DNA of 64,000 bases, taken from Candidatus Bathyarchaeota archaeon. Lineage in GTDB: Archaea; Thermoproteota; Bathyarchaeia; 40CM-2-53-6. The notes under the pieces are model-generated. The model was given only the letters and a program-made list of their open reading frames with translations. It had not been told where the DNA came from and searched no databases. The translations under genes were made by a program, and so were the position numbers. The DNA lies in contig CAVTBR010000003.1 in assembly GCA_963733055.1 (NCBI GenBank), forward strand, positions 352,001 to 416,000, read 5' to 3'. Shown piece by piece: positions 4,574 to 15,769 of the stretch. Numbering within the stretch: the stretch's first letter is position 1; every line of letters begins with the position of its first letter.

Positions 4574-4924
4574 GACCGAGCGTGCCGCCGCAACAGAATT
4601 TTCCCGCGTAATTTTCCACGATATATAAAGAACACTGGGTGGACAACTTTCGACCGAGGAACCTAGGCCATTTCATCTACAAACCATATTTCCGGGGCGC
4701 TCTTTAGCCCCCCCTAAACGCATTTCATACGAGAACTGACTCCACTACGACTAATCCGCAGTCACCGATCACGATGTTTCGAAAGATGACGCTCTCTTCT
4801 CCTTCAAGCGCGAACACCTTGGATGATCGTTCATGACCTTTGAAAGGAGGTTAATTTATCCGACAGTCGTTACTGGTTTAGTGCCCGCCCTCAATGCGAG
4901 CAATTTGGGGAAACAAGGGCAAAC

Positions 4925-5026
4925 GGGCCCGTAGTCTAGTCTGGATTAGGACGGTGAGGGAGCTTCAACTCTCACGTAGGCCTGCGGAGCCGCAAATCCT
5001 GGGTTCAAATCCCAGCGGGCCCGCCA
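4925..5026 (+). tRNA. tRNA-Arg(GCG) with 23-nt intron at 29/30 (4957-4979), encoded CCA
   Basis: Acceptor GGGCCCG/CGGGCCC, T-loop TTCAAAT; removing the intron restores anticodon stem GTGGC/GCCGC around CT-GCG-GA; BHB-like junction. Confidence 0.93.
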
Positions 5027-5138: not shown

Positions 5139-5393
5139 CTACTCCGCCGGTATGGTCTGCTGGCGACTCTCGTAAGTCTCAGCTGATGCCTGGTCCAGGT
5201 CTCTCAGGGCTGAAGCGGCTTGCGCCTTGATGTCCGAGCTGTTCATGCCTTCTTCGATTCCTTCTTCAACGGTATCGGCTACTTTGGACGCGTTGTTTTC
5301 GGAAGCTCCCGCTTTGAGTAGCGAAGTCTTCAGTTTCTCCTTGTCAAACTCTTCGACACTCCCGTCAATTTTTGTTATCATTACCATATGCAT
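5139..5393 (-). CDS. Stand-alone ATP-cone domain protein
   Basis: ITKIDGSVEEFDKEKLKTSL...SSDIK matches the ATP-cone pattern VxKRDGxxExFDxxKI; GGAGGTGA SD upstream. Confidence 0.85.
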   Translation of the reverse strand: MHMVMITKIDGSVEEFDKEKLKTSLLKAGASENNASKVADTVEEGIEEGMNSSDIKAQAASALRDLDQASAETYESRQQTIPAE

Positions 5394-5632: not shown

Positions 5633-6289
5633 ATGTCTGCCCCAAAAGTTCCCAGACTGATTCTTCTGTCCTTTCTTGTGTTGTTGGCCGTTTCGGTTTC
5701 ATCAATTTCAAGCAGCTCAGAAGCGTATAACCAGTCATGTCAGGTTAACAACTTCACCCCTACATTTCCAAACAGTGTCGCGCCGGGGCAAACGGTACAG
5801 GTTACAACAACGATTGTCGTTAACTGCGCGCAATGGAGAACTTACTATTCAGCGAGAGTGGACCTTCTGGACCATCACTCGCAGCGCATTTTCTCTACTA
5901 GCACATTCCAGATAGGCTGGAAACCCAATGTCACGGCGATCGTTTCGAACGCGGCCGTCGCCCCACAAAGCGGCGGCCCGTGGGCTCTGCAACTTAACCT
6001 TTACATCTTTGAAGAAGCAGGCGAGGTCGGCAGTTTCAACCGTGTCTTCGACGTTCAGGTTGGAAACGCTGTAGCCAATACCCCACCGACAAACTCGACG
6101 AGTTCCACCGCACTCGCAACGACCGCCACCGCCGCAGCAAGCCAAACATCGTCACCATTGGAAAATATCCCAGCAAGCACGGGTACATCGCCTGGTGTCG
6201 GAGAAACAGTTTACATTCTCATCGCATTGGCGGTCGCCGGCGTTCTCTGTGCTGCACTCATTTTTAGAAACCGAAAGCATACCACTTGA
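5633..6289 (+). CDS. Secreted Ig-like protein with Thr/Ser linker and C-terminal TM anchor
   Basis: Signal peptide, beta-rich domain, C-terminal hydrophobic helix plus RNRK; paralog of 22372-22905. Confidence 0.8.
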   Translation: MSAPKVPRLILLSFLVLLAVSVSSISSSSEAYNQSCQVNNFTPTFPNSVAPGQTVQVTTTIVVNCAQWRTYYSARVDLLDHHSQRIFSTSTFQIGWKPNVTAIVSNAAVAPQSGGPWALQLNLYIFEEAGEVGSFNRVFDVQVGNAVANTPPTNSTSSTALATTATAAASQTSSPLENIPASTGTSPGVGETVYILIALAVAGVLCAALIFRNRKHTT

Positions 6290-7213: not shown

Positions 7214-8671
7214 TTAGGCCACGGCTAAGGCATCTTCGAAGAAATAGCGTGTCGCACCGAGGGTTTGCATTTCTAGCGGACGCACGTTCACGACCAGCGG
7301 AAAGTTAGCCACAACGTCGCCTATGGCGAGACAGCGGTGCGGAGGTAGATCGCGCACAACCATGCGTATCGTGTCCGCGTCGACTTTGGCTACTTTTGAA
7401 ACGATTTCGAGATCGTGTTCGTTGCTGAAGTTGAAAAGGAATACATTGTCTGCTTGGCGATAGATACTGCTTTGAATTGTATCTGGCTGGTTTGTTACGA
7501 AAGTCGTGAATAGGCCCAGGTGCCGCATTCGAGTAACCACATCATCCCAGTAAGTCTCTCGCAGGTAGAGGTGGGCTTCTTCGGCGAACAGGAAGAGTGC
7601 TCGGAGTTTCTGTGTGGATAGGAGTTCGGTGAACTTGCTGATGAGCAATTCCACGACGATTCGTCGAAGAGCTGAGTATTGGTTCTTCATATTCACGATC
7701 AACGCGCAACCGGTGGAGTGGTTTCTGAAAAGTTCTTCCAGGTTTAGGGCTGTGCGATTGTCGTCGGTGAATATGCCTGAATCGTCCAAAGTGTTGAACC
7801 GGGCTTGCAACGCGTCTTTGATGCTTTCGTGGCAGTCGGCGTTGGCGATCGCGGCGCCAAGCGCCGTCATTGTAAGCTGATTCTGCCGTTCGAGATCGCG
7901 CCATATGCGGCTGAATATGCGTGCAGAGTTCTCGGGTAGTGCGAGCGCGTAAATCAACGTCCCAAGAAGGGTACTAAGCCCAACTTCCCTCAGGCTGAAC
8001 CTCAGGTTTAGACCTGGGATAAGGGAGATTATCTTTGGTGATAGGTGCATCTGGCGCCCGTCCGTAGCGCGGCCCAAGTTCACGTATTCCCCGTTCACAT
8101 CCAGAACCACGACCGGCGCGCCTTCATGGACAAGGCTCGTCACCAAAAGCTTCGTGAGGTGAGACTTGCCTGTTCCTTTCCTACCCGTCACTATGTTAAG
8201 CCGACCGTCGAGGGCCGCCAGGTCTGAGTTGATGTGTGGAAAGCGGTGCGTGGACCCAAGTTCGAACGCGTGCCTTGACGATAGGTTCTCCAGGAATATT
8301 TTCGCTGGCATCGCCTCTACATGGGAGTGGTTTCTGGACGGCAACCAAGCGACATCTCGGCTGATGCGTCCGTTCTCAATAGCTCCCCTAATTTTCCCAA
8401 CGAGTAATCGCGTATCTTTCAAGACCCTGATTTGTGATGATACTTTGAAAGGGTCGACCTCATCGCCCGAGAGTGAGCCTTCGGATATGCCGTCCCGGAG
8501 TAAGTCCTCTAGAATGCCGGGTATGTTTGCGTACTGAATATCGATCACCTGCACGATCAGGGAACGTTGCTTGACTCTGTCGGTCACGAGTAAGTAGTCC
8601 CCTTTGTCCACTTCCTCATCCGGAAAGCACAAGAGTTGCATGTCGTCGGCTTCCTTTCTGAGGATCTTCAA
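7214..8671 (-). CDS. herA: HerA-like (DUF87) ATPase/DNA translocase
   Basis: N-terminal beta-barrel, Walker A GRKGTGKS, VLDVNGEY, Walker B LFAEEAH, RMRHLG, TNQP; probable TTG start overlaps the nurA stop (TTGA); ORF open from 8686. Confidence 0.9.
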   Translation of the reverse strand: MKILRKEADDMQLLCFPDEEVDKGDYLLVTDRVKQRSLIVQVIDIQYANIPGILEDLLRDGISEGSLSGDEVDPFKVSSQIRVLKDTRLLVGKIRGAIENGRISRDVAWLPSRNHSHVEAMPAKIFLENLSSRHAFELGSTHRFPHINSDLAALDGRLNIVTGRKGTGKSHLTKLLVTSLVHEGAPVVVLDVNGEYVNLGRATDGRQMHLSPKIISLIPGLNLRFSLREVGLSTLLGTLIYALALPENSARIFSRIWRDLERQNQLTMTALGAAIANADCHESIKDALQARFNTLDDSGIFTDDNRTALNLEELFRNHSTGCALIVNMKNQYSALRRIVVELLISKFTELLSTQKLRALFLFAEEAHLYLRETYWDDVVTRMRHLGLFTTFVTNQPDTIQSSIYRQADNVFLFNFSNEHDLEIVSKVAKVDADTIRMVVRDLPPHRCLAIGDVVANFPLVVNVRPLEMQTLGATRYFFEDALAVA

Positions 8672-9776
8672 TGAAGAGCCTCCCACGCCGTCCCAAAGGG
8701 ACCGAATAACGAATGTCTCAGGGCGAGTTTAGGCATCATTTGAACCCCGAATTCGGCTTGAGCGAACACCTGCATGGCGAGGACGTCCATCGCAGTGAAA
8801 GTCGAGAGCACGTGCGCCATTCTGAGGGTTTCAGGGTAGCCTTGATCAACAATGTCTGTGCCAGCAAGCTGAGCGAACTCACTCACGGCGGCATCGGCGG
8901 AAATTTGTCTATCGATGTCGATTCGGAACGGGAACCCGAACCTCGCAAGTTTCGCAACGAAAACGCAGACCCAAGAACTGTACCGGATACGGCGGAAACT
9001 GCTCCGTAACCTCCGTGTCGACGTCTAGCAAGCATGGATCTGATTCATTTTCGAGCAGCCCAGTCAGACCTTCATTTCTTATTCGCAGTTTAGTTTTTTT
9101 CGATATGGCGATGAGCGCGCTACCTGAACGGCGCAGCGTTCTCCAAGATACGTTCGAGTTCTCTAGAAGGGTTGTCTGGAGTTCCAGCCGTGAGCGAGCC
9201 ATCGATTAGCAGGAAAGCGTTTCCAACGGAGGAACTCACATTATACTGCAGCCAGCGTTCAAGCATGTTACGAACTCGTTTCAGCAATCCCTCGACATTT
9301 GGCTCACCAGAAAATGGCGGTAGACCCAGACTCGCGAACCTTTGCGACACAAGCGGGCTATTGTAGCCGAGCGAAAACACAAATGGTCCATACCTCACAT
9401 AGCGATACCGCTTGTCTTCAAGAACAACCACGGCTCCCCGAAGTGCGCAGAGCACCCCATCTGCTAGCTCGCCAAGCTTGATGGATGACGTGTCAACTGC
9501 GATCACTGGCCGGTCTGTGTTGACTGGGTGAAGTTTGGCGACGTGCTCATCATTAGCATCGAGATCCAACGTGAAACCGTCCGCGCCGTCGTATTGTGTG
9601 CTCCCGAAGTCGGGTGGGACATCAGGTACCGTGTAGAGCGGGTTTCCTCTGATCGCTTCTATTGAATCGCGGCAGAAGTCTAGGAAATGCTTTGGGATTA
9701 CGCTAGAGTCTTCCGGGGAGAGAAAGTTACTTATCTTCTGTTGCGTAGCTGTGGTTTGGTGGGTGTGGCGGCTCAT
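8668..9776 (-). CDS. nurA: NurA-domain nuclease, split by two +1 frameshifts (about 9135 and 8967), probably sequencing errors
   Basis: IAVDTS, LLIDGSL, IAISKKT, FRIDID, GYPETLRMAHVLSTF motifs spread over three ORFs; deleting one A at 9135 and one at 8967 gives a continuous protein. Confidence 0.85.
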
Positions 9777-9867
9777 TTCACTCCAGCCCCCGTATGCGGG
9801 TCGATTCCCCAAATCCCCCGCTGCCGCCGCACCCTCTCTCTATGTGCGGCCATCAACCTTCACATTC

Positions 9868-10383
9868 CTAGAGCCTAGGCGTTACCTCCCCACGTAGTTC
9901 CACCAAGGAGTGCTCAAGTTCCATGAGCCCCTTGGAGGTGATTCGATACCTACCTCGATCAGCGCGATCAATTTGGCCGGATCTCTGAAGCTGGACGAGT
10001 ACGTTTCTAATCGTCTTCGGAGCCCTGCCTATTCCAGTCGAAATCTCTTCAATGTTCAGTGAGTCTGACCCGCGCTTGCCCATCTTGCCGGCCAATTGGG
10101 CCATGAAGAGGAGGACCGTGATCGCTTTTTCAGCTGGTAGGTTAATTCTAGTTAGAAGCAGTTGTCCGGTAGATGTCATTCTTGCGAAATCGGTCACCTT
10201 GTCGGCGAGTCCAGCAAGATCGGGCACGTAGACAAGTTTCTTCGCAATATCGTATGCGGGAACGGCTTGAATGAGGAACTGCATAACTTGTGGCACGATT
10301 TCTTCGACCGACCCGCTGCCTTCATAGTGCATGCCCTCTGTGTCTATCTGCACTTTTACTTGCAAGGTTTCAGTTTGCGCCAT
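9868..10383 (-). CDS. Winged-helix protein, paralog A of unknown family
   Basis: C-terminal wHTH LNIEEISTGIGRAPKTIRNVLVQLQRSGQIDRADRGRYRITSKG. Confidence 0.85.
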   Translation of the reverse strand: MAQTETLQVKVQIDTEGMHYEGSGSVEEIVPQVMQFLIQAVPAYDIAKKLVYVPDLAGLADKVTDFARMTSTGQLLLTRINLPAEKAITVLLFMAQLAGKMGKRGSDSLNIEEISTGIGRAPKTIRNVLVQLQRSGQIDRADRGRYRITSKGLMELEHSLVELRGEVTPRL

Positions 10384-10387
10384 CTTC

Positions 10388-10920
10388 TCATTTCCCTAAG
10401 TTGGTTTTGAGTTTAGGAAGGACTTGTTCGCGAAATATGTGCAGGCCGAGAGTTGTCACCCGGTACTCCCCTTTTCCCTTTCTTTCCGCGAGGGTTTCAC
10501 CGCATAGTTCGCTAAGCCTGCCCGCCACTGTTCCGGCAGATTTCTTGGTCTGCGAAATCAGATCGGAGGATTGCACGAGATCTTTTTCCGATTTGCCCAG
10601 CATGTGCGCGATCGATGCCTTCGCTAAATGGAGAAGCAGAAGTTCGCGATCCGCCAGTTGATCAACTGGGGCCGTGACTACGACCCCTTCGGGGGTCACC
10701 GCAAAATTCCTTCGCAGGCTTTTGCCAGCTCGTTGATGTCCACCGATAGGGATAGGCGGGACGCGAGTTCGAGTTGAGGAATGGCCTTGTTGAGGAATGA
10801 GAGAACTTCTTGGGCGACCAGGTCTGGTGTGCCGGTAATTTTCTTTTCGAGAGTTCCGTATTTGATGATAACTTCTAGCGGATGTGCTAGGCTGGTGAGT
10901 TCCTGTTGGCCTTCCGGCAT
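10388..10920 (-). CDS. Winged-helix protein, paralog B, one base missing at about 10702
   Basis: Joining ORF 10696-10920 to the 3' part of 10388-11011 gives ...ACEGI(F)AVTPEG...TVAGRLSEL...GKGEYRVTTLG, colinear with paralogs A and C. Confidence 0.8.
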
Positions 10921-10979
10921 TTACTTTCATTTCACTTTCAATCCTATACAGTATAAAAGCTTTGAAGTGCGTAATAACC

Positions 10980-11067
10980 CTGCTAGGTGTTACTGTCTTC
11001 AGATTCGGCATTTTGTGCGGGTTCGAGCAAGATTGCGTCAGAATTGATAGTTCTGCTAGGTGTTACT
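10980..11067. promoter_or_regulatory. Two exact copies of CTGCTAGGTGTTACT (10980-10994, 11053-11067) between divergent wHTH genes; putative operators
   Basis: 15-bp perfect direct repeat with 73-bp period in a divergent intergenic region. Confidence 0.55.
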
Positions 11068-11152
11068 CATGTTCGGTTCAGCTCGATTCTGACGTGCAAG
11101 AGCACGGAAATGCAATGTTTTAAAGCATAATGGAGTAGAATTACCGTGCAAT

Positions 11153-11413
11153 TTGGAATATAATCAGTTGAAACGGGTTCTGCTTCGAGTTCTGGCGGAT
11201 AATGGGCCGTTGGATAGTCAGTCGCTTTTGCGCATCCTTTCCTCTGGGGAAGCACAATCTGAGATTCATGCCGTACGTATGGCGTTGATGCGCTACTACC
11301 GGCAAGGCCTGTTGAAGCGTGTTCGCAGCGGCGGGCAGTTCACTTACTCGCTGACGGAGCGTGGTATTCGGCGACTTGAATGGCTTGAGAGTCAGCAGGT
11401 AAGATCGAATTGA
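11153..11413 (+). CDS. Small winged-helix transcriptional regulator (BlaI/PaaX-N-like)
   Basis: AVRMALMRYYRQGLLKR...FTYSLTERG wing motif, 86 aa. Confidence 0.8.
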   Translation: MEYNQLKRVLLRVLADNGPLDSQSLLRILSSGEAQSEIHAVRMALMRYYRQGLLKRVRSGGQFTYSLTERGIRRLEWLESQQVRSN

Positions 11414-11536
11414 AACTCCCACCATATCCCGGATGAGTTTCATCAAATTATTAGAGTCATGAACAATGGACCACTCTTCCACTCGGTGGAAATAGGCTTA
11501 ACCGCTTTTCCATTCGCTCGATTTATGGCGTTGAAC

Positions 11537-12133
11537 ATGAACAAAACTACACTAACAATTGTCGGAGCTGCGCTCGTTGCAATTCTCAGTCTAGGATACG
11601 CTGGATATACAATGTCAACTCCACACATGGCGACTCTAACTCAGCAGCAGTATGTGACGAATACTCAAAATTTCTACAGCACACAGACTCAAACCGTAAC
11701 CGCGACTAACACAGTGACCTCCGCCGCCGCCATAACTAATGCTGCGGTCAATTTGAACGGCGGCGGCCCTGGGTACTACCAGACATGTGGCTACTGGGGA
11801 TGTTCCCCTGCCCAAGGCTACACATACACACCATGCACTCCAGTAGGAGGCTACGGTAGCAACCAAGTAACGTGTTACGGCTATCTGATCCAAAACGGGA
11901 ACGGATGCACGCAACTTTCAGTTCGGACTACCGACCCTAACTATTGGGCCTCAGGCATCCAATACGTACATTTCGCTTTGCAAAACTTGCCAGCATCATC
12001 CCCGCCTATTGGAAGCTGGGTTAACGTAATCGGACAACTGTCCATCACCAACACAAACCTCTCCGCCGCCAACTCTGCCTGCTCCCCGAACACTCTCACC
12101 GTTAGCTCCATAGCACCTACTTCAGCTCCATAG
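11537..12133 (+). CDS. Membrane-anchored secreted protein, Thr-rich linker, Cys/Tyr/Gly-rich segment, probable OB-like C-terminal domain
   Basis: N-terminal TM, TQTQTVTATNT linker, GYYQTCGYWGC, GSWVNVIGQL; start uncertain (ORF open from 11459). Confidence 0.75.
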   Translation: MNKTTLTIVGAALVAILSLGYAGYTMSTPHMATLTQQQYVTNTQNFYSTQTQTVTATNTVTSAAAITNAAVNLNGGGPGYYQTCGYWGCSPAQGYTYTPCTPVGGYGSNQVTCYGYLIQNGNGCTQLSVRTTDPNYWASGIQYVHFALQNLPASSPPIGSWVNVIGQLSITNTNLSAANSACSPNTLTVSSIAPTSAP

Positions 12134-12243
12134 AGCACTCCACTCCGAACAATCGTCTAACACGTTCCCGAGCCCGCGTTCGGGGACGCCCCTACTTTTT
12201 CTTCTCAAAGCTTTCAGTCGACGAATGGTTTCTGGGGAATACG

Positions 12244-12315
12244 AGTATTGTTAGCGCATTAAGTACTTCATATTATTATCAGTACTTGATAGTACTCCTA
12301 GGCCTCATCAGTACT
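12244..12315. repeat. Cluster of AGTACT palindromes (12262, 12281, 12291, 12310, plus AGTATT at 12244)
   Basis: Four exact hexamers within 54 bp, spacing 19/10/19. Confidence 0.6.
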
Positions 12316-12805
12316 ATGCAGCAGGTCTCAACTTGGGAAGTACATCTTGGCCGATCCATTGTAGCCCTGCCCCTGAAAGTGAATACTTGCCTTGTTCAGC
12401 GATAAGTTTGCCTTCCTTTCTCAACTCACTAACCCTCGCGCGAACAACGTTGTCCTTAACGGCCTTCCAGCTTGTTCCGAGGAGCTCGATCAGCTTGGCA
12501 TCTTCGATCGGTGCGGGATTACTGCCGTATAGTATGATGCCGATGGCTTCTTTCGCCGAAATCTTATCAAATGGTATTGTGAAATGAAGCTTACCTTCCG
12601 CAGTAGTCTCAAGAATACCGGCAAGTTCCTCTCCAGGAGCGAAAGCCTGGCCCGATTGATCGCCCAAAGCTTGCACTCCACCTGTCGGCACGGGTTGTGA
12701 TCGCATTAGCTCTTCGAATTTTCCTTGCACGTAGTCGAATTCACCTTCGAGCTCGACCTCGAAGTTGCCACGGCGAATCCTGAAACGTAACTTGCGTTCA
12801 GACAA
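12314..12805 (-). CDS. Winged-helix protein, paralog C
   Basis: N-terminal LRFRIRRGNFEVELEG, GILETTAEG, wHTH VVRARVSELRKEG...KYSLSGAG, ends VLPKL like paralog B. Confidence 0.85.
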   Translation of the reverse strand: MSERKLRFRIRRGNFEVELEGEFDYVQGKFEELMRSQPVPTGGVQALGDQSGQAFAPGEELAGILETTAEGKLHFTIPFDKISAKEAIGIILYGSNPAPIEDAKLIELLGTSWKAVKDNVVRARVSELRKEGKLIAEQGKYSLSGAGLQWIGQDVLPKLRPAA

Positions 12806-13386
12806 TTTGACTCACTGTAATCACACCTAGACGGTTATTTCATACTTGCGAGTCATAGGCCATGCCTTCCGAAACGTACCGGTCAATAATCTATCCTAGA
12901 AGCACTAACGGTTCAGCCCATTACTCAAAAGCGCGTTGTAAAACTCTCAGATATCGAGGAGAATTCTCCGTCGATATTTCCGCATCAGGAATGGTCCTGT
13001 GTGGGAATCTTCAGGATCTCACAAATGAGACATAAGAACGACCGCAAGAAGGAAACTCGACAGCCATGTAATCTGAGGCAGCCGGTGTAGTACACTCCGA
13101 CTCTTCGGCAAATGTGAGCAAAGCGGCTCATCTTGCGTTGATAAGACCACGTTAGGTTGATGAAACTGATAAGATTCGATAAGCTCTGATATTTGTTGCA
13201 TAAATTATTATCAGGGACCAATCCGACTACGTGTAGTAGTTGAAGGAACATTATGAAGCGGGCCGGCGAATAATGGGTTGATTAGAGCAGCTATAGGTTC
13301 GGTGGACTTCCGTAATTCATCGTCGGTGTTCGCTGAACCAGAGGGAAGAGACCGGCTAAGCATTGTCGATGGGCGGGGTGCGGATC

Positions 13387-15528
13387 ATGCGTGAGCGATG
13401 GGCGACCGCCCTCCTGATAGGTCTCTCAATTCTGGCCCTTGCCCAGGCTTTGCCGTACATGTCTCAAGCCAGTTACGGCACGACCCCAGCCCATGTATTT
13501 GCGCAAGTCTTCCCGCTTCAAACCGTTAGTGGCACGACTCAAAACGGCGCAACCGCTACAGGTAGTACCGCTACCGGAACAACCGCAACCGGTACACCTG
13601 CTACGGGCACAACCGCTACGGGTTCAACTGTGTCCACGGACCCGATAACTACCACGGCTACGGGCACGACCGCTACGGGTACGACAGCTACAGGTACTAC
13701 CGCAACGGGTACAACTGCAACCGGTACGACCGCTACAGGGACGACAGTATCTACGACTTCGATAACTACGACGGCGACAGGTACTACGGCTACGGGTACA
13801 ACCGCGACGGGGACTACGGCTACAGGGACGACCGCTACTGGTACGACTGCAACCGGCACAACTGCAACGGGTACTACAGCGTCAACGACGACGACCGTCC
13901 CAATTGTTAGTGTAACCGTCGACTCTATTCCCCATGGCATGGGAGCAGTTATGGTGGATGGGAGTCCGATTACGACGCCCACCGTATTCAGTTTCCAAAG
14001 TGGTTCTATGCACACACTGTCTGCAGTCAGCTCTTTGAGTTGTGGGATGTCGTGCCAGTGGACGTTTCAGTCGTGGTCAGACGGTGGCGGACAGACTCAC
14101 ACTATCACTGTTCCCAATTCACCCGCGACATATACCGCCACATTCCAGCAACAGTATCTCCTAACAATACAATCCAATGCTGGAGGCACAGTAGCTCCGC
14201 CGACTGGATACCAGAACGCAAATGCCGTGATACCGATACTCGCCACTCCTAACAGTGGCTTCACCTTTGTGTCGTGGAGTGGTTCTGGTTCAGGTTCGTT
14301 TAGTGGCACCTCGTCCTCCGCCTCGGTCACAATGAACGGCCCGATCACAGAAACCGCGTCTTTCGCTCCGACAAGCAATGTGCAGATAACAGTGACATCC
14401 TCGCCCACAAGCACCGGCACCATACAGGTCGACGGTTCGTTCATAAACACCCCGCAGACCTACACTTGGACCCCAGGAACAACACACGCCCTCTTCGCAA
14501 CATTCAACCCGCCATGCAGCTACAACTGCCAAGCGACGTTTTTGTACTGGTCTTCGCCGAGCATCGGAACGATCAATTCGCAGTCAATTACATACACTGT
14601 GCCGTCTTCGACGGAAACGGTCACTGCAACTTATCGAATAACTCAAAACGCGGTCTCGATAACCATAGCATCAGTCCCATCTGGTCTGAACTCAATAATC
14701 GTCGACGGAAACCAAGTCACAACTTCACAAACATTCAGCTGGACCATTGGTAGCACGCATACTTTGACGGCGAATCAGTATTGTGGAGTTGCGGGATGCC
14801 CGACTGTGTTGAGGTATTGGCAGTCTTCGAGCATAGGCACAATCAACGCGGCATCGTTCACCTACACAGTCCCAAGTTACTCTGAGACCGTGACCGCCTA
14901 CTACCAGTCGTCACAGAACGTACCCATAGTGGTCACGGAAATTCCGAGCGGAAGCGGGCCAATCGTAGTGGATGGGACGCCGATCATCGTTCCGCAAACA
15001 TTCTACTGGGCTTCAGGAAGTACCCACACGCTCTCGGCCCAAGGCGGTTACAGGCAATTCGTGAGCTGGGGTTCGCCGAGCATCGGCTCTGTCAACGCGA
15101 ACACCATAACATACGTTGTCCCGTATACGGGGGAAACGGTGGCGGCATACTACATCGTCCCCGCGCCCGGAAACCTGATCCCGATAACTGTAACCACAAG
15201 CGTTAGTGGTCCGACGGTAGCCATAGATGGCATCGTGACTTCAACGCCACACACATACTTCTGGCCTGCGGGATCACAGCACACGGTCTCTACATCAAAT
15301 GTAAACTGTCAACCGAGCGGTTGCCAGATTCAGTTCAACAGTTGGACTTCTCCGAGCATCGGCACAACGTACACGGGTACGATAACGTACACTGTACCTT
15401 TCGCCGGAGAAACGGTCACTGGTAACTTCACGCAGTTCACTCCAGTCCCTGAGTTCAATGGAGTAGCTGTAGTCGTCGTCTCAGCGCTGGCAACCGCCCT
15501 ATACGTCCTGAAGCGCCGGCGTCGGTAA
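13387..15528 (+). CDS. Cell-surface protein: TTATG repeat tract, about 5 Ig-like repeats plus an InlB-B-like repeat, PEF-CTERM-type sorting signal
   Basis: Signal peptide; repeated VDG...TP.TF.W..GS.HTL.A modules; C-terminal VPEF-TM-KRRRR; start uncertain (13363/13387). Confidence 0.88.
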   Translation: MRERWATALLIGLSILALAQALPYMSQASYGTTPAHVFAQVFPLQTVSGTTQNGATATGSTATGTTATGTPATGTTATGSTVSTDPITTTATGTTATGTTATGTTATGTTATGTTATGTTVSTTSITTTATGTTATGTTATGTTATGTTATGTTATGTTATGTTASTTTTVPIVSVTVDSIPHGMGAVMVDGSPITTPTVFSFQSGSMHTLSAVSSLSCGMSCQWTFQSWSDGGGQTHTITVPNSPATYTATFQQQYLLTIQSNAGGTVAPPTGYQNANAVIPILATPNSGFTFVSWSGSGSGSFSGTSSSASVTMNGPITETASFAPTSNVQITVTSSPTSTGTIQVDGSFINTPQTYTWTPGTTHALFATFNPPCSYNCQATFLYWSSPSIGTINSQSITYTVPSSTETVTATYRITQNAVSITIASVPSGLNSIIVDGNQVTTSQTFSWTIGSTHTLTANQYCGVAGCPTVLRYWQSSSIGTINAASFTYTVPSYSETVTAYYQSSQNVPIVVTEIPSGSGPIVVDGTPIIVPQTFYWASGSTHTLSAQGGYRQFVSWGSPSIGSVNANTITYVVPYTGETVAAYYIVPAPGNLIPITVTTSVSGPTVAIDGIVTSTPHTYFWPAGSQHTVSTSNVNCQPSGCQIQFNSWTSPSIGTTYTGTITYTVPFAGETVTGNFTQFTPVPEFNGVAVVVVSALATALYVLKRRRR
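13549..13872 (+). repeat. Coding pentapeptide repeat (TTATG), about 18 copies in blocks of 5, 6 and 7
   Basis: 15-bp period with heavily varied synonymous codons. Confidence 0.9.
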
Positions 15529-15673: not shown

Positions 15674-15769
15674 GCGGCCGTAGTCTAGTCTGGTCTAGGA
15701 CATTGCCTTATGCGCGTCCACTGGCCTTCCAAGCCAACGACCCGGGTCCGAATCCCGGCGGCCGCACCA
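15674..15769 (+). tRNA. tRNA-Gly(TCC) with 18-nt non-canonical intron (15704-15721, position 27/28), encoded CCA
   Basis: Acceptor GCGGCCG/CGGCCGC; removing the intron restores anticodon stem TTGGC/GCCAA; GGAC/GTCC central helix with 3-nt bulges ATT and ACT. Confidence 0.92.

Follow-up and report, generated by a model that had tools for sequence, protein, structure and literature searches.

Paralogous winged helix-turn-helix proteins are tied to a distinct NurA-HerA clade in Bathyarchaeia and related Thermoproteota

The DNA considered in this study is a 64,000-nucleotide (nt) stretch of the genome of a Bathyarchaeota archaeon, hereafter the window (G000:C3:352001-416000, where G000 denotes this genome), and coordinates are positions in the window unless a contig or locus is named. 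It carries an operon in which two winged helix-turn-helix (wHTH) genes, B and A, precede nurA and herA, with a third paralog, C, nearby. Our analysis shows that these paralogs belong to a real, ancient and unnamed family of accessory proteins that is tied to a distinct NurA-HerA clade, and the conserved association of such a set of proteins with a non-canonical NurA-HerA is apparently undescribed. The evidence points to an operon that belongs to the core genome of Bathyarchaeia and related Thermoproteota and passes by vertical descent, and not to a mobile defence island.

The arrangement given in a preliminary description of this DNA, in which B, A, nurA and herA follow one another on the minus strand with C further off and a small wHTH gene, D, divergent from B, was confirmed from the open reading frames (ORFs) and their translations, as were the 4-bp spacing between the B stop and the A start and the TTGA at 8671-8668 in which the nurA stop overlaps the herA start. 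The absence of mre11 and rad50 from the locus also held when the proteins of the window were searched. The TTG start of herA was set by the consensus of relatives together with this overlap, and it gives a HerA of 485 amino acids (aa). The features are as follows.

7214..8671, minus strand: herA, of the clade called W here, 485 aa from a TTG start (Pfam DUF87, E=4e-13, above the cut-off; tree; motifs).
8668..9776, minus strand: nurA nuclease gene, from a three-frame translation, with two single-base frameshifts in the assembly (near 9135 and 8967).
9868..10383, minus strand: paralog A, 171 aa, with a beta-beta-alpha segment, hairpin and wHTH, from profile alignments (hhalign); the last few codons are shifted near 9890.
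10388..10920, minus strand: paralog B, about 177 aa, from frame translation and an AF2 model of the intact ortholog at locus L047; frameshift near 10704.
10952..10958, minus strand: TATA-like box, putative promoter of B-A-nurA-herA, a conserved AT-rich block in a 16-sequence alignment.
10980..10994, plus strand: operator-like site 1, with the sequence CTGCTAGGTGTTACT; it lies some 20 nt upstream of the B TATA box, and some distant families carry it in inverted orientation.
11053..11067, plus strand: operator-like site 2, a 15-mer identical to site 1 and 73 nt from it; core columns invariant in 16/16 aligned sequences.
11153..11413, plus strand: D, a stand-alone 86-aa wHTH protein divergent from B and a candidate regulator of the operon (Pfam PaaX, E=5e-6, above the cut-off).
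12314..12805, minus strand: paralog C, 163 aa, separately transcribed here (profile comparison, AF2 model).
11459..12133, plus strand: E, a Thr-rich secreted-type gene between D and C, a lineage-specific insertion outside the system.

The relationship among the paralogs extends over their full length, with hhalign probabilities of 99.8 for A and B, 97.8 for B and C and 97.9 for A and C, each over at least 150 columns, and the preliminary claims about their N-terminal segments and T-x-x-G hairpin, and about a VLPKL close to the ends of both B and C, proved accurate. In the AF2 model of the L047 ortholog of B (100-row alignment; pLDDT 93.6, pTM 0.78) two strands and a helix are followed by two further helices, the hairpin and finally the winged helix. 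The model of C is consistent with this fold, its N-terminus being of low confidence, and the C-terminal wHTH anticipated from the sequence is present on the models. Structure searches matched the wHTH only, as a generic MarR/PadR-type domain (Z about 10-12 over 75-85 residues), in results whose rows were filled by wHTH proteins and in which the N-terminal domain was searched only as part of whole models. Foldseek gave no match to the paralog models at E<=0.001. No family-level match for A, B or C was found in Pfam, NCBIfam, PHROGs or PADLOC, where hits were limited to sub-threshold generic HTH; members of the B family match generic HTH models, and the nearest Atlas clusters are annotated 'hypothetical protein'. 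The suggestion that the family is undescribed thus stands in that no named family scores above its cut-off, with the qualification that the wHTH part itself resembles generic MarR/PadR regulators. One Caldarchaeum paralog matched EAP30 of ESCRT-II (E=0.0014), a link that we rejected as generic wHTH similarity given that 0/47 members of the B family matched at E<=0.01.

The family is wider than the three genes of the window. A fourth paralog, F, is co-oriented before B in some families (C with F, hhalign P=99.5), and G and I, found outside the order to which G000 belongs, have the beta-beta-alpha segment and the wHTH and lack the hairpin. D resembles the wHTH of G (hhalign P=89.6). A survey of fusions among the 150 best of 643 representatives at E<=0.001 revealed a Ser/Thr kinase joined to B-like and then A-like modules, i.e., in operon order (P0191), an A/B module joined to DUF488 (P0306), and two proteins with an N-terminal domain in which a PD-(D/E)xK-like pattern was seen by eye and not confirmed by Pfam (P0234/P0252). 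Because B-like and A-like modules stand in tandem in P0191, A and B may form a hetero-oligomer. A wHTH gene unrelated to the paralogs, H, was also seen outside the order; it is conserved, encodes 230-245 aa with an N-terminal wHTH, has no Pfam match and is divergent from the F/B/A block in several families (examples are L120:7146-7880, L121:4722-5414, L228 and L230).

Conservation of the gene set provides the strongest tie between the paralogs and the enzyme. At E<=0.001 HerA finds a match in 58 of the order's 61 genomes, and identity is 48-98% for most of them. We fetched 40 loci from these 58 genomes, three of which end at a contig edge before B, and the order B-A-nurA-herA is kept in all 37 informative ones, which bears out the proposal that the wHTH genes are linked to nurA-herA in other genomes. 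These loci fall into two mutually exclusive types, 23 with a divergent D (three families) and 14 with F before B (six families). C adjoins the operon in 27/37 loci and is detected in 49/61 genomes, and D is matched in 39/61 (E<=1e-3). Across the phylum, where genomes serve as samples and kin are not independent, a profile of the HerA clade matches 99/301 genomes (E<=1e-60); the match is nearly always single, and families are positive or negative as a whole. The positive groups are Bathyarchaeia, Caldarchaeales and Brockarchaeia (families Caldarchaeum, Calditenuaceae, Geocrenenecus and Brockarchaeota), and the same profile found none in the families containing Nitrosotenuis (0/44), Pyrobaculum (0/20), Sulfolobus (0/10) and Aeropyrum (0/6). 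The B profile matches 126/301 genomes, 108 of them at E<=1e-10, and 92 of the 99 genomes with a clade-W HerA match it as well.

Outside the order, 40 loci were picked from the B-profile matches, and in 25 of them a clade-W nurA and/or herA lies no more than about 3 kb away. Both G and nurA-herA were located in 68 genomes; they stand head-to-head in 65, and in the remaining three they are on separate contigs. Eighteen genomes have strong B matches and no clade-W HerA; in L122, L129, L227, L228 and L230, where clade W is absent, the paralog cluster adjoins a NurA-HerA of another clade, so the partnership outlasts exchange or deep divergence of the enzyme. The neighbours of the locus, which from their ORF starts we take to be lysS, gatE and genes for thermosome, enolase and an N-glycosylase, are presumably mostly housekeeping. 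A plasmid collection held no relative of HerA, and one scan of viral contigs, of limited sensitivity, gave no relative of C.

HerA scores 50 bits against Pfam DUF87 (cut-off 23.2), has a Walker A (GRKGTGKS) and a Walker B (FAEEAH) that are invariant in 23 orthologs, together with RMRHLG and TNQP, and its N-terminus is HAS-barrel-like by position. Pfam NurA matches the intact L047 ortholog at E=1.6e-8, above the cut-off, and the catalytic-type residues of NurA (D, E, DG, SK, GYP and AH motifs) are invariant in 27/27 aligned orthologs, with motif I reading AxDxS rather than AxDG (motifs as defined in parts of PMC13748450 and PMC3326311). A search of PDB sequences with the NurA profile gave nothing at E<=1; the best archaeal PDB sequence match of HerA is 4d2i (E=3.5e-10). 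In a quick IQ-TREE analysis of 56 HerA sequences (SH-aLRT support only, midpoint root, long branches flagged), the HerA of the window falls in clade W, of 31 rows (SH-aLRT 100) on a long stem, apart from an eight-row Mre11/Rad50-linked clade that includes the S. acidocaldarius HerA (SH-aLRT 99) and apart from a second wHTH-linked clade (SH-aLRT 99). In clade W, TN(Q/E)P and RMRH(L/I/F)G replace the canonical (S/T)QRP and REGRKFG. The second wHTH-linked clade (L122, L123, L227-L230, L238) has QAGGYN, with no arginine, at the expected arginine-finger motif, and is possibly an atypical or inactive ATPase; its L228 member has 1399 aa, probably including an insertion such as an intein.

G000 carries further nurA-herA pairs besides that of the window. 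One of them, on contig C1, is linked to mre11-rad50, and we rejected it as the canonical repair operon of the lineage: its HerA matched 0/60 relatives at E<=1e-20, and this copy is therefore accessory. At its locus (L241, C1:236636-247743) the accessory mre11-rad50-nurA-herA is followed by an ATPase/nuclease-like gene, by its motif presumably of the OLD family, and then by a 730-aa restriction-modification (RM)-like gene, which makes it a candidate defence island built on a repair-like operon. Near a contig end, at C1:1554475-1562022, another nurA-herA pair has two neighbour genes that from their ORF starts we take to be DNA-methylase-like and restriction-endonuclease-like. Two more HerA-like genes lie at C2:110794-114397 and C1:1113038-1116502, where by eye we noted a very long-branch HerA after a 631-aa NurA-like ORF and a HerA before a KaiC/RadA-like ATPase gene. 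Mre11-like genes were detected in 39/60 relatives with a hidden Markov model search that missed the divergent mre11 of G000 itself, so their patchiness is overstated. Elsewhere in the phylum, Caldarchaeum and family f32 carry clade W plus a canonical nurA-herA-mre11-rad50 operon (L226, L239), the operon itself runs on into mre11 and rad50 at L127 and L128 (2/40 outside loci), and L231 has a divergent clade-W paralog with mre11-rad50. The preliminary description had called the pair in the window a second NurA-HerA machine, which fits the Caldarchaeales, where the canonical operon is also present; in this order the pair is the only conserved NurA-HerA found. The concern raised there that it might be the genome's only orthologous repair herA-nurA proved half right, the pair being the resident one of the order and not the canonical ortholog.

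DNA repeats flanking these genes had also been reported, along with recruitment of the machine to them. Among 50 direct-repeat families, the 20 largest are either Thr-rich repeats within coding sequence or short matches present in two or three copies, and the repeats at 13511-13909 and 14547-15423 belong to the coding sequence of a neighbouring secreted protein. What is left of the claim is one conserved 15-bp pair inside the B/D intergenic region, where CTGCTAGGTGTTACT occurs twice, 73 bases apart, and its core does not vary among 16 aligned genomes. All D-type loci (23/23) have the 9-mer core between B and D, and no F-type locus (0/14) has it at that position; one F-type locus has a match 1.6 kb away. 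In F-type loci ACGTTACGT stands upstream of the TATA box (13/14, against 0/23 D-type loci), with GTTAC common to the two motifs, and the promoters between G and nurA have a TGCRCAA-type element before the TATA box in 18/18 cases, by a pattern fitted after inspection. The D motif shows no enrichment in the genome, with 18 matches to the 9-mer core against 44 expected and 3 matches to the exact 11-mer core against 5.5 expected. Having only two copies, and fewer genome matches than expected, the repeats were rejected as loading or centromere sites, and recruitment to them is not supported, given also their position in a promoter, their co-occurrence with D and their replacement where D is absent and A and B are kept. 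A scan for bacterial promoters and terminators stayed at chance level. The simplest reading is that the two sites form a local operator of D, placed upstream of the B recognition element (BRE) like an activator site, by analogy with Ptr2-type activators. Because D and F are mutually exclusive and their motifs share GTTAC, A or B may instead bind in both types of loci.

In comparison with two close relatives, the assembly has four frame breaks that the preliminary description had overlooked: one in the frame of B (near 10704), two in nurA (near 9135 and 8967) and one in the tail of A (near 9890). The frames of all three genes are intact in most relatives, where nurA encodes about 340-410 aa, and contigs of relatives lack the breaks at 9135, 9889 and 10702; contigs nearly identical to the window do not span the breaks in B or nurA. 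The four operon frameshifts are probably sequencing errors. When G000 was compared with 222 genes of the close relative G019, 15 breaks were found (0.07 per kb), and a CGCG lies within a 20-base context of 12/15 single-base breaks genome-wide and of 4/4 in the operon, counted by eye in the assembly (unaltered or minus the extra base) or in the relative. Since CGCG occurs about once per 240 bases in the genome, its presence near most breaks suggests, from a count by eye without formal control, a systematic long-read error at a modified CGCG motif. The same clustering hints at a CGCG-modifying methylase in the organism. However, the operon has four breaks in 2.3 kb, more than the genome rate predicts (post hoc Poisson P 2e-5 to 8e-4), which weighs against sequencing error and makes decay in this strain a possible alternative.

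We favour, at a probability of roughly 45%, the reading that the operon encodes a core machine for processing double-stranded DNA (dsDNA) ends, composed of a NurA-HerA of its own clade and dedicated partners that would bind DNA. It builds on the gene set, gene order, distribution, HerA clade, paralog fold, conserved catalytic residues and promoter motifs that we observed. In the characterised HerA-NurA, a HerA hexamer pumps dsDNA into a NurA dimer, and the T. kodakarensis enzyme cuts both strands from any end (PMC12977600, in part). By extension, the HerA of the window would form a hexamer that, powered by ATP, feeds a dsDNA end to a NurA dimer for cutting, and a HerA-NurA that cuts both strands needs targeting or restraint. 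The beta-beta-alpha segment and the helical N-terminal half would serve to pair A and B, with C or, in other families, with F, and two different winged helices would then face the DNA, as suggested by their architecture, their tandem order and one natural fusion. In what is the weakest step, the A/B complex would load, gate or limit the machine on chromosomal ends such as breaks and collapsed forks, with no need for Mre11-Rad50. D would be a transcription factor with a local role, binding at the two 15-bp sites to control the divergent promoter, and F or G would fill its slot in other lineages with a different motif.

Several observations weigh against this reading. Six of the 40 outside loci have no recognised nurA or herA of any clade near A/B, and in Caldarchaeales and several Bathyarchaeia A/B are convergent with G and not co-transcribed with nurA-herA, so the linkage may be regulatory. 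Plain break repair is already covered where the canonical operon co-exists (Caldarchaeum, f32). The ATPase activity of clade-W HerA is assumed, because the canonical (S/T)QRP and REGRKFG motifs are replaced, and P0191 is one sequence that lacks the N-terminal beta-beta-alpha parts. In G000 itself B and nurA carry frameshifts, denser than across the genome. The T. kodakarensis HerA-NurA, which degrades both strands, may not resect at all. More generally, the cellular role of HerA-NurA is disputed among end resection, fork processing, division and defence (both from the same part of PMC12977600).

It is somewhat unlikely that A, B and C (and F, G and D) are transcription or chromatin factors only, forming a circuit that controls nurA-herA and never touches the enzyme. 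All of them are wHTH proteins with a fold that matches MarR/PadR-type regulators, each architecture has its conserved motif just upstream of the TATA box (D 23/23, F 13/14, G 18/18 post hoc), the shared GTTAC would allow A or B to bind both D- and F-type motifs, and A/B are sometimes unlinked or convergent. Yet three or four paralogs, each its own subfamily phylum-wide, are much for one two-gene target; the motif changes with D, F or G while A and B stay; the D motif has no genome-wide regulon; and the module is fused elsewhere to a kinase, to DUF488 and, by eye, to a possible PD-(D/E)xK domain. We regard as quite improbable a segregation or division machine in which HerA is an FtsK-like pump and the wHTH proteins are AspA-like site-binding adaptors. 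HerA does belong to the FtsK-HerA superfamily, the distribution is that of a core gene, and Foldseek ranks AspA of pNOB8 first for B (E=4.4e-3); that match, however, is not significant, covers the wHTH only and is tied with MarR proteins, the locus has no parA-like gene or repeated centromere-like array, no membrane segment was noticed in HerA, NurA keeps its catalytic residues, and some whole families of the phylum lack the system. A division role has been suggested for archaea lacking FtsK (PMC12977600, in part).

Also to be weighed is a resident RecBCD-like guard, in which NurA-HerA would destroy linear foreign dsDNA from its ends while the wHTH complex would either tag or protect self DNA or detect the invader; we consider it unlikely, though less so than segregation. 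HerA-NurA can degrade both strands from any end, and an antiviral role has been put forward for it (the same part of PMC12977600), and HerA/FtsK, wHTH proteins and nucleases recur together in anti-invader 'capture' systems (PMC12839542, in part). Mre11-like genes are patchier in the order (39/60) than clade W, a patchiness overstated by the search that missed the mre11 of G000. Against this reading, the operon is inherited as a conserved single copy among neighbours that we take to be mostly housekeeping, with HerA 48-98% identical across the order in full-length matches; it is the other nurA-herA pairs of G000, and not the window pair, that adjoin RM-like genes. Defence-island behaviour was not seen. 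The score of HerA against the anti-phage family NF042943 (34 bits, cut-off 800) is far below family level, and the PADLOC matches are partial only.

Comparison with known systems leads to the same distinctions. Canonical archaeal HerA-NurA with Mre11-Rad50 (Sulfolobus, Pyrococcus, Thermococcus) shares with the window the nurA-herA pair, the overlapping stop and start, NurA motifs I-III and the HerA P-loop and EEAH. In contrast, the system described here has a separate HerA clade with TNQP and RMRHLG, AxDxS in NurA, two to five paralogous wHTH genes and usually no mre11-rad50 (none in the operon of the window), and its HerA reaches 13.9 bits against NF040819 (cut-off 970), which with NF040937 represents the canonical repair HerA. 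Anti-phage HerA systems (Sir2-HerA, HerA-DUF4297, HerA/FtsK capture and BRC) likewise combine a HerA motor with a nuclease, and wHTH components occur in the capture systems (PMC12839542, in part), whereas here the partner is NurA and not Sir2 or DUF4297, the locus is a conserved single-copy core locus and scores remain below the family cut-offs. NurA is nowhere mentioned in PMC12839542. AspA-ParB-ParA of pNOB8 and MarR/PadR/PaaX regulators share the C-terminal winged helix (B against AspA, VIA Z 10.3, tied with MarR proteins), and D passes the Pfam PaaX cut-off; unlike in these, A, B and C have an N-terminal beta-beta-alpha segment, helices and a hairpin that went unmatched in the structure searches, and the locus has no ParA/ParB. 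The likeness to CedD, the Ced DNA-import ATPase (NF053655), is a weak superfamily one (32 bits, cut-off 600), and no CedA-like membrane genes were noticed in the operon. In searches of the open full-text literature, leaving aside supplements and subscription papers, no title or abstract opening among the papers listed describes the operon, and none was returned that combines Bathyarchaeia, HerA and NurA; PMC13748450, which treats NurA motifs and gene context, has no wHTH partners in the part covered.

Other features of the window were noted in passing. E belongs to a multi-copy family with five paralogs elsewhere in G000 and is present at its position in 1/37 of the relatives' loci. Two further Thr-rich secreted-type genes lie at 5633-6289 and 13363-15528; the latter, the largest, has repeated domains and what we take to be a C-terminal VPEF-type sorting motif. 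A stand-alone 84-aa ATP-cone protein (5139-5393, Pfam E=9e-10) is encoded between lysS and the operon. ARAGORN called a tRNA-Ile(TAT) at 15674-15769, and a tRNA-like stretch near 4922 (about 4920-5015), which ARAGORN did not call, shares 31 bases with it at 84% and possibly contains an intron.

A broader proposal, which we hold to be unlikely as it stands, is that the paralogs together make up an ancient hetero-oligomeric adaptor for DNA recognition. Such an adaptor would dock on NurA-HerA motors from more than one clade and sort dsDNA ends into those to be destroyed and those to be spared, as an archaeal counterpart of Chi/RecBCD or of Ku-like end control. Bathyarchaeia could then manage their DNA ends without a fixed Mre11-Rad50, and a dedicated activator (D, F or G) acting at an operator of its own would turn the system on. 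If the paralogs are plain regulators, the value of the finding drops to that of a new DNA-repair regulon. The partners and the pair of D operator sites are small, expressible components with which the targeting or restraint of such a machine could be probed, and the paralog family adds an unnamed archaeal DNA-binding architecture. Throughout Bathyarchaeia, Caldarchaeales and Brockarchaeia, one NurA-HerA clade persists as part of a core gene set together with a partner family of its own, also in lineages that have a canonical operon as well or a patchy Mre11.

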